Of a stretch of DNA of 64,000 nucleotides, positions 51,001-60,000 are shown one piece after another. How positions within the stretch are numbered: the first letter of the stretch is position 1; each line of letters opens with the position of its first letter. The position numbers were made by a program. Source of the DNA: a bacterium (GTDB lineage: Bacteria > Patescibacteriota > Dojkabacteria > JAKAPS01 > JAJZLI01); the NCBI GenBank assembly GCA_021785355.1, contig JAJYFR010000001.1:263096-327095 (forward strand), in the 5' to 3' direction.

Positions 51001-54000
51001 TCATTATTGATATTTTCTCTTAAAATATCTTCTGTCATTATTTTATCTCTTATATCATTTCTTGGATCATTTGATTTTAGAATATCTTTATATGAAGCAT
51101 TATCATATAAAAATATTTTTACATCCTTCTTTTTTAATTTATTTATTAAATTTAAAAAATATCTATTTATTCTACCATCAGATAAATATTCAGAAAGGAT
51201 TTTATTATTTTTTAGCTCAAATTCATTCTCTGATATATTTTTATCTTTTATAAAATCAAATAAATTTTTATTTAGCTCTATTCCTACTTGTGATATATTT
51301 AATAAATCTATTAAATATTCATATACTAAATAATTTTCTTTTATTCCATGAACTTCTCCACAAATTATAATATTGGTTTTTAAAAAATCTTCTTTTAAAA
51401 GATTCAATGTTTCTATACTATTTATTTTTAAAATTTTTGATAGATTATTCATTTATTTTATTAATAATAAAATCTGCTATAGATTTAGATATAGGTAAAT
51501 TTAATGCATTTTCAATCCATAAATATTGACCATTAGGGTTTATTTCTAAAAAATATATTTTACCTTCCTTATCTTGTATAAGGTCAATAGCAGAGTAATT
51601 AAGATTATAATATCTATTTAATTTGAACAGTATATTCTCTATATTTTTAGATAATTTATATTCTTCATATGTTAAATTTTTGTAATCAGTTCTAAAATCT
51701 ATTTTTGATTTTTTTGAATGAGAAAATATTTTTGCTGTGAAAATTTTATCTCCAATAATAGTAACTCTTATGTCACAAACTTTATCTATAAATTCTTGGC
51801 AAATAACTGGAGAGAAATTCAGGTCTATTTTTTTAATATCTTCTATATATGTTAGAGTTGATTTAATAATTCCATCTTCTAGTCCAAAATTTTGAGACCT
51901 GATACTTTTCATTATAAACTTATCTTTGAAATAATCAGAAATGATATCATTTTTATTTGTTATTATAGTTTTGGTATTAACAAAGAATTATCACTTATAC
52001 TATCTAATACCTTTAGTTGATTAAGTTTATAACTTGCATTTTGGATATTTATTATATTGTTAACCCATTTTTTAATTGGAATATTTAATATACTTCCTAA
52101 TAAAAAATTCTTTTTTTCTATTTTTATTGAATAATGATATATTTCTTTTTTATTATTCATAATAAGTATTATACATAAAAGAAAAAAAAGTTTCATGATC
52201 TTCTTTCTAATGCTTTTCTTTTTTATCTTTTTTATATTACCAATCTTTTTAGTATTTCCACTTTGAGTTTTTGGACAATGTAATCTTCATTTTTAAAAGT
52301 CTATGCAGATACTTTATCTATGAATTAATTATGTTATATGTAATAAGTACATAAATAGCAAAGTTTTATTTTATTAATTTGATAGAACTCGGAATATGTT
52401 TATAAATAATATTTAATTATGTTTTTTTGCGAGAGTTAAAATATTTAGTAATATTATTATTCGTTTGTATAGTTAATATAATATTCTTTTTCCCAATTCT
52501 TAACATCAATATTTTTAATTTCTATATTATTTAGTTCAAAATATTTTTTTAATAAGTTTTTTAATTTGGTTACTACATCTTTATCGTTTACTTCTTCTTC
52601 ATACTCCCAGGCTCCTAAAAAAGAATATAATTTTCTTCTTCTTGGTATTTTTTTTATCCAAATTTTAGATTCTAAGGTATTAGCATTATGATAACCTATC
52701 ACATCTGTATAGTCTCCATATGCATCTCTATTTTCATATAATATATATCCTTTTCCTATAAATAAATTTTTAATAATAAACCTATGATATAACCAATCTT
52801 TGGTATTTAAACCATTTTTTAAGGTAATTTTGTAAACTCCTGAGATAGATTTATTTATTTCTTTTTTATTATTCATAGTAAGTATTATATATGAAGGAGA
52901 AAGGGGAATAAATACTGGTTATGTTAAAAAACATAAAAAGATTTATTCCCCAGTCCTTTACTTGAACAAGATCCTCCAACTATAGAGGAAATATGTTACT
53001 AAGTAAGAGAGAAGTAAATCTACTTTCCGATAGTTCCGAATTCTCCAGTGGAATAGTCATAACTCCAACCTTTAGGAGATGATCCTTCTGGGTCATGTCT
53101 GTATATCTTATAGACATCTCCATCCTTTTTAGAAGTTTCATGACCTCCTTTCCAAAACTTCCCTTTTCCATCATCTTTGTAGTCCCAATCTTTTCCATGT
53201 TCCCATTTTGAGTTCTTGGACACTATATTCTCCCTTTTTAAAGGACTGTAGATACTTTATCTACAAATTGATTATGTCATATTAATAAATTTCATGCATT
53301 GCCATGCATAGCAAATCTTTGTTCTATTGATTTAGTAATTCTATTTGTACATATTTGCCTGAGATACAAACATTTTTCTATATTTCCCATTAATATGCAT
53401 TAATTCTGTATGTGTTCCTTGTTCTATAATTTTTCCTTTATCTAGAACAAGTATTTTGTTTGCATTTTTTATAGTTGAGAATCTGTGAGATATTATTAGT
53501 GTAGTTGTATTTTCAGTAATCTTATATATATTTTTAAATATTCTTTCTTCTGATAAAGCATCTAGAGAGGCGGTAGGTTCATCTAATACTATAAATTTAG
53601 GATTTCTAAATAATGCTCTTGCTATTGCAATCTTTTGTTTTTGTCCTCCTGACAAATTAGTTCCTTTTTCAAAATCTGAATCTAGAAGTGTGTCATATTT
53701 ATAATTTAGCTTATCTATATCATGTTCTATATTTGCATCTTTAGATGATTTTTTTATAAGGTTAAAGTTGTTTATATTATTAATATTAGAAAGAGAAATA
53801 TTTTCTTTGATAGAAAACCAAAAAAGATAATATTCTTGAAATAAAACTCCCCACAATTTATAGTAACTTTTAAGATCTATATTTTTTATATTTATATTAT
53901 TTATTAAAATCTCTCCTGATGTTGCATCATAAAATCTTGCAAGTAATTTTATTATGGTAGACTTTCCTGCACCGTTTCTACCTACAATTGCTATACTATC

Positions 54001-57000: not shown

Positions 57001-60000
57001 TTGATGTTTGGCATACTTAATATATTATAAGTTAAACAATATTAATCATCATTATCATTAGGTTGACTAGAAGTATATGTTGTAGATGGACTATCGTCAT
57101 CTGAATTAAGAGTTGTCATTTTTGTACTATCTATTTGTTCATCAACTTCATCTTTTAACCAATCGAATGGTGTAATTGTATCTGTTTCCATAATTAAAAT
57201 CACCTCCTTATTTACTATTAATTGAATTTTAATACTTATTTGTGAAAATGACATTGCCATGCATAGCAAATCTTTATTTTGTGTTGATCAGGAAGGATAA
57301 TTGTGGGTGTAAATTAATAAATTTATAATAAAATTTTTAATTAATCTAGTTAAATCTTTTTAAATTAAGTTCTTGTATACTATCACTTTTCTTATACCCT
57401 TATCCACACCCTAGTGCAAAATTTCCTGAACTTATACATTTGATAGAAAATATATTTCTATTATGCTATAATATAGGTTAAATATGATCTCAAAACTAAT
57501 ACAAGAAGAACCTATTGGTGAGACTATAAGAAAATTAAGACTTAATTCTAATAAAAACTCTTTAAGTCAATTAGAATTGAGTTATGCTATTGGTTGGGAA
57601 AATCCATCTACATTATCCAGAATTGAAAGTTCTCAAGTTATACCCTCAAGAGAAACGATATTAAAAATATCAAGAGCACTATCATTAGATAAAGAAAGAA
57701 TAAATACTCTTCTTAAAAGATTAAATTATTCAGAATTTGAACCTGAGTTAACGGATAAATATATTAATAAACTTATTAAAAAAGTTGAAGATGAATTTGA
57801 TGATTATGAATATCCTATTTCTCTGAAATTATTTGGTTCAAATTTATATTTAAATAAATCATCTAAAAAAATATTATCAAAAATTATAGATATTAATATA
57901 GATGAGTATATGAAAGATCATTTATATCTTGAGATTTTTTTAGACCCAATTTTTAATCTTAGAAAATATGTTGTAGATTTTGAAGAATCAGCGACTATTT
58001 TTATTGGAAATTATTATTTTATGACAAAATCTTTTCTAAATTCAGAACAAATAGAAAATGAAATAAAACCTTTAAGGAAATATGCAGATTTTAATAAAAT
58101 TTGGGAAAAAGTATTAAAATCAAAAGATTTAGAATTTACATCATATAATATCCCTTTAAATTTTAATTTACCACATATTGGGGAAATAAAATTCTTTGTA
58201 TGGGAAAATATTTTTTTTGAAGATAAAAGATTTTATATAGAACATATGATTCCATTTAATAAAGAAGATATAGAAAATTATTAAAGACATTAAAAAATAA
58301 ATCTTCTATTTAAGTTTCATTTTTTTAAAGATATCTTGAGTTTCAAACTCATTTTTTGAATTTCTTTGTATGTCTTTTGCTATAGGTAATGTAAAAGAGA
58401 ATGTTGAGCCTTTTCCTATAACACTATCTATCCATATTTTTCCTCCCATTCTTTCAACTAAACCTTTTACTACATACAATCCTAGTCCTGTACCTCCAGG
58501 TCTTACTAATAGATGCTTTGTATCTTTAGGGTCATTAGGATTTCCTATATAATTGTTTAATCTATGAAATTTTTGAAATAAATTAGGGATTTCTTCTTCT
58601 GGTATTCCTACTCCTTGATCTTTTATACTGACAGTAACAAACTTTTTATCTTGTATTGTAGATATTTGTATCTCTCCTCTTTCAGAATATTTAATAGCAT
58701 TAGATATTAGATTACCAATGATTTCTTCTACTTTTGTTCTATCTCCATAAATTAAATTTACATCAGTTTTTTTATATTTTATATTTAAACCTTTATTACT
58801 TGCTTCTTTTGAAAACCCATCTACTTGAGACTCAATCATAGAAGATAAATCTAAATTTTCAGGAAGAATAGGGACATCAGATCTTCCCATTCTGGATGCT
58901 TCTAAAAGAGTATTAATAATTCTAATTTCATTTTCAATACTCTCAATACTTCTTTGTATATATCTTTTCAATTTTTCTAAGTATTCATTATATCTTTTAG
59001 ATTCTGGTAATTTATTTATATATTCAGTAATGGCACTTTGTGCCATATATACATTACCTTTAACAATGCTAGCAGGAGTTCTTAGTTCATGAGAAGAAAT
59101 AGATATCAAATCATCTTTTAGTTGATCTAACCCTTTTAAATCTGCATTTGCTTTCTCTAATTTTTTATTATTATTTTCTAATTCTTTTGTAGCAATATTA
59201 ATCTTATCCTGAAGTGAATTTATAAGTTCTTTATTTTCTTCAAAAAGTAATGCTTTAATTACAAACATATTAATTTGTTTTGTTTCATTTTTTATAAAAT
59301 TTAAATCATTATTTAGATAGTAATTATAATTTTTTTTATTTTTCCAAAAAATACATCCTACTATATTATTTAAAGAATCTTTTAAAATAGAAACAACCTC
59401 AATGTTTTTATCTTGAAATTTTTTTTGTATATCTTTATTCGTTATATCATATATGAAAATCAAATTATCTTTTAAAGGAAGGGTTTTTGAAATCTCAAAT
59501 AATTCTTTATTAATAGTATCTCCGAATTTATCTATATATAAGATAATATTAGAAATATCTGTATTTGATGTAATATATGATATGAACTTCTCCATACCTA
59601 TTTTTATATCGGAAGAATTACTTAATATATTATTTATATGATCCCTAAAATCTAAAGTATCATAATTCTTGAAATATTTACTTCCTCCAATTTTGAATAA
59701 AATATAGTTGTACGCAAATATGTAAAAAAGACTAATTAATATAGAATCTACAATAAGTAATAAATAAAAATCTTGTTGTTTGTAAACATATATAAGAAAA
59801 TAATTAATAATTATTGCAATGATTAATAAGGTGATTGTAAAAAAAAATGTTACAAGAATGTTTTGCCATATTTTTTTTAAATCATCAATATGGGTACGAG
59901 TTATAGCATAATAAGTAAATGATGTTATAAAGATAGAAAATAGAGGACCTATTACTACAAATGAATAAATTTTTAACATAGGAAGTAATAGATTTGTGAA

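Follow-up and report, generated by a model that had tools for sequence, protein, structure and literature searches.

Introduction

Graspetides are a well-studied class of peptides made by ribosomes and then modified after translation (RiPPs), and many of them are potent inhibitors of serine proteases. Microviridins (graspetide group 1) combine a PFFARFL leader and a TxKYPSDWEEY-type core containing Lys with MdnB, MdnC and a GNAT. Patescibacteria, also called the candidate phyla radiation (CPR), have minimal genomes and are probably attached to hosts, so that any secondary metabolites they retain likely matter for interaction with the host or with competitors. Here we analyze a 64,000-nucleotide (nt) stretch of a Patescibacteria genome (contig JAJYFR010000001.1, positions 263,096 to 327,095; "the window", whose own numbering is used throughout) that likely contains a graspetide (omega-ester-containing RiPP) biosynthetic operon, comprising a small precursor peptide, an ATP-grasp ligase and an ATP-binding cassette (ABC) exporter. 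This reading is based on gene content, family assignment, conservation and synteny, for which the window was compared with homologous loci (L001-L020).

Graspetide clusters of CPR bacteria have been predicted before (Makarova et al. 2022, PMC8939145; branches 1 and 2), and candidate phyla are mentioned among graspetide hosts elsewhere (PMC13097080); the kind of system is thus already known. The published leader signature is Phhx(1,2)h, and that of the branch-1 core is TxxxTx(6-10)Dx(1-4)D (PMC8939145). More recently, the rosaritide system MirB/MirC was described as a partner-dependent graspetide synthetase (Carter et al. 2026, PMC13097080). The CPR clusters have so far only been predicted (PMC8939145).

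Results

All noted elements of the predicted three-gene unit are located on the minus strand, in the following arrangement (aa, amino acids; ORF, open reading frame):

57254..57269, no strand: 16-bp palindrome TTGCTATGCATGGCAA, found in a copy search of the window
57226..57254, minus strand: predicted sigma-70-like promoter (ATGTCA, 17 nt, TAAAAT), by consensus match only
57199..57210, minus strand: Shine-Dalgarno site TAAGGAGGTGAT, 7 nt 5' of the ATG, from the sequence
57042..57191, minus strand: precursor peptide gene, 49 aa, reading METDTITPFDWLKDEVDEQIDSTKMTTLNSDDDSPSTTYTSSQPNDNDD, from ORF and conservation
55197..57014, minus strand: whole 605-aa ORF, starting 27 nt after the peptide stop codon
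56139..57014, minus strand: N-terminal domain of the 605-aa protein, aa 1-292, from alignment within the family
55197..56138, minus strand: graspetide synthetase domain (MvdC/MvdD/MdnC-type ATP-grasp), aa 293-605, from NCBIfam, PDB and motifs
53341..55137, minus strand: fused permease-ATPase ABC exporter, 598 aa, starting 59 nt after the ligase stop codon

The original prediction, made from this DNA alone, described a 49-aa peptide with a textbook Shine-Dalgarno site, a 605-aa protein beginning 25 nt later, and a fused permease/ATPase ABC exporter. Peptide and ribosome-binding site are both present (57191..57042 and 57210..57199), the order of the genes holds, and the 598-aa exporter has both an ABC_membrane domain, from aa 28, and an ABC_tran domain; the spacing before the ligase, however, is 27 nt. 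No terminator-like site was found inside the unit. The G+C content of the window is ∼24%, and the named homologues of the 605-aa protein come from metagenome-assembled genomes of Patescibacteria.

The only Pfam domain in the 605-aa protein is a RimK-like ATP-grasp domain at aa 424-600. In NCBIfam, the ATP-grasp ribosomal peptide maturase model TIGR04187 (GRASP_SAV_5884) matched with an E value of 8e-48 and 163 bits, the MvdC and MvdD models with E values of 3e-39 and 5e-38, respectively (131-135 bits), and the grasp-with-spasm model (TIGR04192) with 2e-25, placing aa 297-599 on model positions 1-317. The RimK family model (TIGR00768) reached only 49.2 bits (E = 4e-13) against a cut-off of 143.4, so that the protein does not qualify as a full-length RimK; the S6-glutamate ligase model PRK10446 scored 13.6 bits against a cut-off of 331, LysX matched at E = 1e-6, and the D-Ala-D-Ala ligase (Ddl) model gave no match to the full-length protein in the NCBIfam search. 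When a profile of ten family members was compared with the PDB, six matches were obtained, all of them graspetide synthetases (CdnC, MdnC, MdnB, AMdnB, 9bou, and PsnB), and no RimK, LysX or Ddl structure was matched at E ≤ 0.01. E values for CdnC, MdnC and MdnB ranged from 6e-29 to 1e-20, with query residues 293-598 aligning to residues 21-342 of CdnC, its whole length (E = 6e-29), and MdnC matching at 8e-29. A DFR motif at aa 523-525 and the E-x-N (Mg/ATP) motif LEINPNGQ at aa 573-580 align to DWR and LEINPVGE of MdnC and CdnC; the DFR motif is critical for graspetide synthetase activity (PMC13097080). By these comparisons, residues 293-600 are predicted to be a complete graspetide synthetase, whose ATP-grasp domain groups with the ribosomal-peptide maturases and not with RimK, LysX or Ddl. 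The ATP-grasp domain had been proposed for the C-terminal 200 aa; the domain itself stands, but its extent does not, as ∼293-600 align to whole graspetide synthetases. A hidden Markov model (HMM) comparison had been proposed as a check on this assignment, and it revealed no clustering with non-peptide ligases, the graspetide maturase models scoring best.

Within the window precursor, the leader reads METDTITPFDWLKDE... (leader peptide METDTITPFDWLKDEVDE), and the C-terminal core reads ...STTYTSSQPNDNDD, the last 20 residues of the peptide comprising 8 Ser/Thr and 6 Asp/Glu, in keeping with the C-terminal richness in Ser/Thr and Asp noted at the outset. At every full-length homologue of the 605-aa ligase with upstream DNA (59-75% identity, 601-624 aa), an ORF of 41-50 aa with the same ribosome-binding site lies directly 5' of the ligase (L001, L003, L004, L005-7, L008, L009, L010, L014, and L016), or, in L015, between two tandem ligase copies. 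A profile search yielded 16 precursor clusters, all of one type, with the frame open over 37-52 codons; a peptide identical to that of the window is encoded on a 757-kb contig. The PFDWL leader motif of the original prediction proved to be the best-conserved stretch of the peptide family, as [PS]-h-[DE]-W-h is found in 16/16 precursors; across the same 16, the core consists of [TS]-[YWH]-[ST]-[TA] and, 1-9 residues further on, D-x-D-D. An alignment of 10 precursors shows five invariant residues: M1, E2, the leader-motif Trp, the Thr that comes first in the core motif, and one Asp. At these invariant residues synonymous codons are used (Thr ACT/ACA/ACG, Asp GAT/GAC), and variation in the leader is highest at third positions, which indicates selection on the protein level. 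Together with its conserved upstream position, this makes the small ORF more than a chance occurrence, and the proposed check for it in syntenic homologues thus found not only the ORF but also its leader and core Thr/Asp positions conserved. Because a core Lys is not conserved across the precursors, esters rather than amides are expected. The start of the precursor gene carries the cassette AAGGAGGTG(A/T)TTATATT-ATG in the homologous loci as well. No RNA element that might explain the conserved 5' region was found when 43-64 kb were searched against Rfam.

Three homologous loci were irregular. In the L010 precursor (5811-5951), the CAA codon of the others is replaced by an in-frame TAA, although there is also an intact variant, P0134. 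L015 contains a tandem duplication in which the second precursor (4742-4867) is frameshifted and a second ligase copy is present, and in L016 (971-2762), which is from the same organism as the window, the ligase is split into 511 and 93 aa. These irregularities look like signs of decay or assembly error.

The exporter gene of the window scores best against generic MsbA-type models (NCBIfam). No C39 peptidase domain was matched in it by Pfam, and the alignments to TIGR03796 and TIGR01193 start at model positions 156-160, past the peptidase domain, so that it does not qualify as a peptidase-containing ABC transporter (PCAT) or NHLM-type exporter. A link of this kind of exporter to graspetide ligases was found in sister loci with stand-alone ligases of 320 aa, which share 53-56% identity with the window protein over 98% of its ligase domain. 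In L017, L018 and L019, the gene directly 3' of the stand-alone ligase encodes an exporter with 54-55% full-length identity to that of the window, and the gene order is palindrome, 37-aa precursor, 232-aa protein of no assigned family, ligase, and ABC exporter (L017 begins inside the 232-aa gene, its palindrome and precursor being beyond the contig end). The 37-aa precursor (MEELKEVNPLEWIQD...ETYTAYDDRDNI) is of the same type as that of the window. The orthologous exporters in three sister loci indicate that the ABC link is real, though most fused-ligase loci have no exporter. Scans of genomes and metagenomes for further loci added only 2 true relatives, and the family is rare.

The main unusual feature of the unit is the 292-aa N-terminal domain (N-domain), which appears particular to this ligase lineage. 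In the family alignment, residues 1-292 match the ligase part in degree of conservation, and an HMM profile of the domain, compared with 1.84e9 representative proteins, retrieved only its own cluster. Searches of the PDB (E ≤ 10) and of NCBIfam gave nothing, and Pfam searches with all 10 members (E ≤ 10) gave only scattered noise. Two possible origins were considered and rejected by hhalign, each at a probability of ≤1%: a fused copy of a sister-locus neighbour (the 232-aa, 234-aa, 238-aa, and orf139-like proteins) and a degenerate duplicate of the ligase domain. Since partner-dependent synthetases have recently become known, the N-domain is, by analogy, most likely a built-in partner, scaffold or substrate-handling module.

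The unit is part of a larger surrounding region in which the following further features were located:

57484..58284, plus strand: XRE-family helix-turn-helix regulator, 266 aa, divergent, with an HTH_3 domain
49746..49823, minus strand: second copy of the palindrome and promoter segment, 5' of the S9 operon (repeat family D4, palindrome 49774-49789)
47436..49451, minus strand: S9 serine peptidase (prolyl-oligopeptidase / oligopeptidase-B-like), 80% identical to the L001/L002 gene
51445..52196, minus strand: decayed second graspetide ligase, stand-alone type, in two ORF fragments (TIGR04187, repeat D1, identity)

The palindrome (TTGCYATGCATRGCAA) occurs in five strong copies in the window (43931-43946, 49774-49789, 53299-53314, 57254-57269, and 63385-63400), as compared to 0.31 expected, a number reached by 0/100 shuffles; a weak copy is found at 50671-50686. 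In 12 other loci it lies ∼78 nt 5' of the precursor ATG (∼62 nt between), and loci in which it is so placed are L001, L003, L005-L010, L014-L016, L018, and L019. It abuts the −35 hexamer, and the −10 hexamer follows it by 22 nt in the window and in the homologous loci (TAYAAT). With the palindrome abutting the −35 hexamer, repression and class-II-like activation are both possible. The other copies in the window precede two small genes resembling the GreA C-terminus, the S9 operon, and a 67-aa Lys/Gly/Trp-rich protein, and the combination of palindrome, ribosome-binding site and an 'ATG GAA AC' cassette is likewise found ahead of unrelated small genes. The unit had been said to sit behind a palindromic operator, and this is correct as to position, but the element is shared by a regulon rather than private to the unit. 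The palindrome is a conserved, promoter-proximal element of a multi-operon regulon and a putative operator or activator site.

A paralogue of the XRE regulator is encoded at 62525-63280 (36% identity to 57484-58284), and each of the two genes is divergent from a palindrome (that at 63385 for the paralogue); an XRE orthologue is found in L015 at the end of a palindrome-driven operon. These paralogous regulators probably bind the palindrome. The XRE regulator was also compared with the PDB to look for a peptide-sensing domain of known type, and no significant match resulted.

In other genomes, the palindrome also precedes small peptides of other kinds. At 5949-7222 of L017 it stands ahead of a 53-aa peptide rich in Cys (MEILTIEKELSMEDIEDALIEVEESLDTVSSSTCGDGNRCQCNNCSCGNGHRC) and a YcaO-domain gene, apparently another RiPP system, unrelated to the first but controlled by the same operator. 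At 8092-10320 of L018 it precedes a 60-aa peptide with a Pro-rich C-terminus and, directly 3', an S9 prolyl-oligopeptidase-like gene, which may be a peptide/peptidase pair of its own. In L019, positions 201-2219 contain a palindrome-driven 57-aa peptide (METLERKPFMANFIE...), a 342-aa MvdD-type ligase (PF21068), and a methyltransferase, and thus a predicted second graspetide-like system, of a different group, on the same contig.

The S9 peptidase of the window is 80% identical to the gene directly 3' of the ligase in L001 and L002. In L004 a gene of a different S9 subfamily (Dpp5-like) overlaps the ligase stop codon. An S9 gene with 45% identity is found nearby in L018, which also contains orthologues of the window's 67-aa and 139-aa ORFs. 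The window peptidase gene is preceded by a control region of its own, a copy located 5.7 kb from that of the unit, as the 78-nt segment with promoter and palindrome is duplicated (49746-49823 as compared to 57226-57303, 83% identity). By position and homology the peptidase gene probably belongs to the cluster as an accessory gene that has been displaced by ∼5.7 kb. Given the shared S9, ORF and ligase relatives, the region from 47.4 to 57.3 kb behaves as one island.

Between the S9 operon and the unit, 50730-52196 holds what is left of another graspetide cluster, one with a stand-alone-type ligase, whose precursor and ligase N-terminus are gone; it is part of the island but not of the intact unit. 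The two fragments of the decayed ligase (51963-52196 and 51445-51912) share 70-81% identity with the L017-L020 ligases, and a fragment matches TIGR04187 at an E value of 8e-34. Downstream of them, a 163-aa and a 67-aa ORF together match a single 238-aa gene of L020 (77-81% identity), and the junction of the remnant reuses the start of the 139-aa ORF (repeat D9). The 67-aa Lys/Gly/Trp-rich protein (53020-53223, 84% identical in L018) and the 139-aa ORF (52457-52876, with 56% identity in L018, a two-repeat form in L009, and a remnant in L001) have no family assignment and recur beside these ligase loci. Overlapping ORFs of 91 and 85 aa at 50054-50586, between the two halves of the island, look from their translations like an antitoxin and a RelE/YafQ-type toxin. 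Farther away, at 42604-43569, a DUF3182 protein (E = 1.5e-17) is encoded 3' of a palindrome-driven GreA-like gene, in a patch whose G+C content is ∼32% as compared to 24%; horizontal acquisition is possible. In L009 and L010, the fused ligase gene is immediately followed by a convergent gene for a conserved hydrophobic protein of 55 aa (3390-3557 and 7818-7985, respectively), possibly a small membrane protein with a link to the system.

Discussion

Our preferred reading is that the window encodes a graspetide system operating as follows. The 49-aa precursor would be translated from its strong ribosome-binding site, and its conserved N-terminal leader (...ITP-F-D-W-L-K-D...) would dock on the ligase. 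The C-terminal half of the 605-aa protein would then activate Asp carboxylates of the acidic tail as acyl-phosphates and join them to Thr/Ser hydroxyls of the T-Y-T-S motif, probably forming two or three macrolactones at −18 Da each, with the N-domain acting as a built-in partner, scaffold or substrate-handling module. The product would be secreted by the ABC exporter. Because the exporter has no peptidase domain, the leader would have to be trimmed by a separate protease, for which the recurrent S9 peptidase is the best candidate. Transcription would start from the promoter whose −35 hexamer abuts the shared palindrome, with the nearby XRE regulators as its presumed binders.

Several observations weigh against this reading, or against parts of it. 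The NCBIfam scores are all far below the curated cut-offs (for TIGR04187, 163 as compared to 350 bits; for MvdC and MvdD, 131-135 bits, less than one third of equivalog cut-offs of 425-475), so the ligase is a divergent member of its family. The Pfam pre-ATP-grasp model PF21068 had no match to the 605-aa protein at E ≤ 0.01; with regard to this subdomain, however, the alignments cover residues 21-342 of CdnC and positions 1-317 of TIGR04192, and PF21068 is carried by most ligase relatives at 30-42% identity, which are MvdC/MvdD family proteins. Searched with regular expressions, the published Phhx(1,2)h signature occurs in only 1/16 precursors of this family, and there outside the leader. The precursors contain no GG or other recognizable cleavage site, and their sole conserved Pro is inside the leader motif, which makes the role of the S9 enzyme as leader peptidase doubtful. 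Structure models were too poor to interpret, both for the 605-aa protein (10-sequence alignment, mean predicted local distance difference test [pLDDT] score of 44) and for the N-domain alone (pLDDT 58, predicted template-modelling score 0.49). Finally, the exporter is not adjacent to the ligase in most fused-ligase loci (L001, L004, L005, L008, L009, and L010); the system thus does not depend on export in every case, and the ABC gene of the window may have been acquired from a stand-alone-type cluster.

The alternative that best withstands the data takes up this last point. It accepts the peptide as a graspetide but has it act inside the cell, e.g., as a regulator or inhibitor of the S9 serine peptidase, with the ABC transporter as an unrelated neighbour. 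It would account for the six fused-ligase lineages without an adjacent exporter, for the recurrence of S9 peptidases beside the ligase, and for the window ABC gene being closest to generic MsbA-type models; in addition, a part in maturation, or in resistance, has been suggested for proteases encoded beside graspetide clusters (PMC13097080). However, full-length exporters with 54-55% identity directly 3' of the sister ligase in three independent loci would be difficult to explain in this way, as would the position of the window exporter on the same strand, 59 nt downstream and with no terminator between. We therefore regard an intracellular role as rather unlikely.

RimK-type tailing, in which the ATP-grasp enzyme would add Glu/Asp stepwise to the acidic C-terminus (...NDNDD), was the alternative offered by the original prediction. 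Although the RimK-like domain is Pfam's only match and the acidic ends vary in length between near-identical loci (GNADD in L003, GNADDGDADD in L001), the RimK model reached only 49 bits (4e-13) as compared to 131-163 bits for the graspetide maturase models, and the PDB search at E ≤ 0.01 returned six graspetide synthetases and no RimK, LysX or Ddl structure. Moreover, the conserved positions of the core are the Thr-x-Ser/Thr motif and an Asp rather than the terminal residue, and the graspetide DFR motif is present. Tailing is thus disfavoured, and we consider it highly improbable. That the small ORF is not the substrate but a leader or regulatory peptide, or merely a conserved 5' region, while the ligase modifies some other protein or a small molecule, is equally hard to credit: its conservation may be partly regulatory, as the palindrome, ribosome-binding site and 'ATG GAA AC' cassette also precede unrelated small genes, but it runs through the entire ORF, in which Trp, Thr and Asp residues are invariant and codons vary synonymously, the frame is open over 37-52 codons in 16 clusters, and no Rfam family matches. 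Moreover, precursors are canonically encoded directly 5' of ligases of the graspetide type (PMC8939145).

Within the graspetide reading, a more far-reaching version can be put forward, tentatively, as possible though not likely. It holds jointly that the N-domain is a new graspetide-synthetase module and that the palindrome and the XRE paralogues constitute a dedicated peptide regulon. The N-domain may be a fused obligate partner, a leader-handling domain, or a second enzyme (protease, esterase) confined to one Patescibacteria lineage. The shared promoter, ribosome-binding site and 'ME(T)L' start cassette may co-ordinately switch on unrelated small-peptide systems, whose members may include the graspetides, the YcaO-linked Cys-rich peptide, the S9-linked Pro-rich peptide, and small secreted-looking proteins, in an ultra-small bacterium that is probably host-attached. 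The XRE regulators might sense the peptides themselves.

The locus is of interest because it is compact and amenable to experiment, comprising a single peptide, enzyme and exporter, and because its leader motif and core pattern are new. Its fused orphan domain may bear on the dependence of some graspetide synthetases on partner proteins, and several peptide systems appear to be connected through a conserved pair of operator and regulator. Nothing known is overturned by it.

Among described systems, RimK/LysX alpha-L-glutamate ligases share the ATP-grasp fold, acidic C-terminal substrate tails and the Pfam RimK domain match, but the window substrate would be a dedicated leader-bearing small peptide, the scores differ (49 as compared to 163 bits), and no RimK/LysX structure was retrieved. 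The system is not a RimK system, and its exporter is not a PCAT.

A further comparison is with the microviridin and chryseoviridin synthetases (MdnC/MvdD, MdnB/MvdC, and CdnC; PDB 5ig9, 5ig8, and 7mgv). Residues 293-600 align to the whole of CdnC and to the ATP-grasp core of MdnC/MdnB and retain both the DFR and the E-x-N motif, the precursor gene lies immediately upstream, and its leader has a Pro-initiated hydrophobic motif (PFDWL as compared to PFFARFL). Unlike those systems, the window enzyme has an extra 292-aa N-domain, there is a single intact ligase and no GNAT/acetyltransferase domain in the cluster genes, and the core has neither a TxKYPSDWEEY motif nor a conserved Lys. By these features the window cluster is not a microviridin cluster.

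With the CPR branches 1 and 2 (PMC8939145), the window shares a Patescibacteria/CPR host, a short precursor 5' of an MvdD-like ATP-grasp enzyme, Thr...Asp cores, and loci that also encode uncharacterized accessory proteins as well as peptidases or alpha/beta hydrolases. The branch-1 core signature TxxxTx(6-10)Dx(1-4)D is found in 7/16 precursors, but the family has its own P-h-[DE]-W-h leader motif, and a fused N-terminal domain is not described for these branches (PMC8939145). When the leader strings of the family were searched in the supplements of two large graspetide censuses, only one unrelated 196-aa Streptosporangium protein was found; one of the tables was covered in part, and absence from it is not proof. 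MirB/MirC provides an analogy to the fused domain, as a lineage-specific extra module of ∼300 aa for folding, activity or substrate delivery; in the window protein a module of similar size is covalently fused. Unlike the N-domain, MirC is a separate SurA-like, PpiC-annotated protein, and the N-domain has no match to PpiC-/SurA-type models (Pfam, NCBIfam) or in the PDB. Compared with all of these, the fused orphan domain, the precursor family and the shared operator regulon appear to be new.

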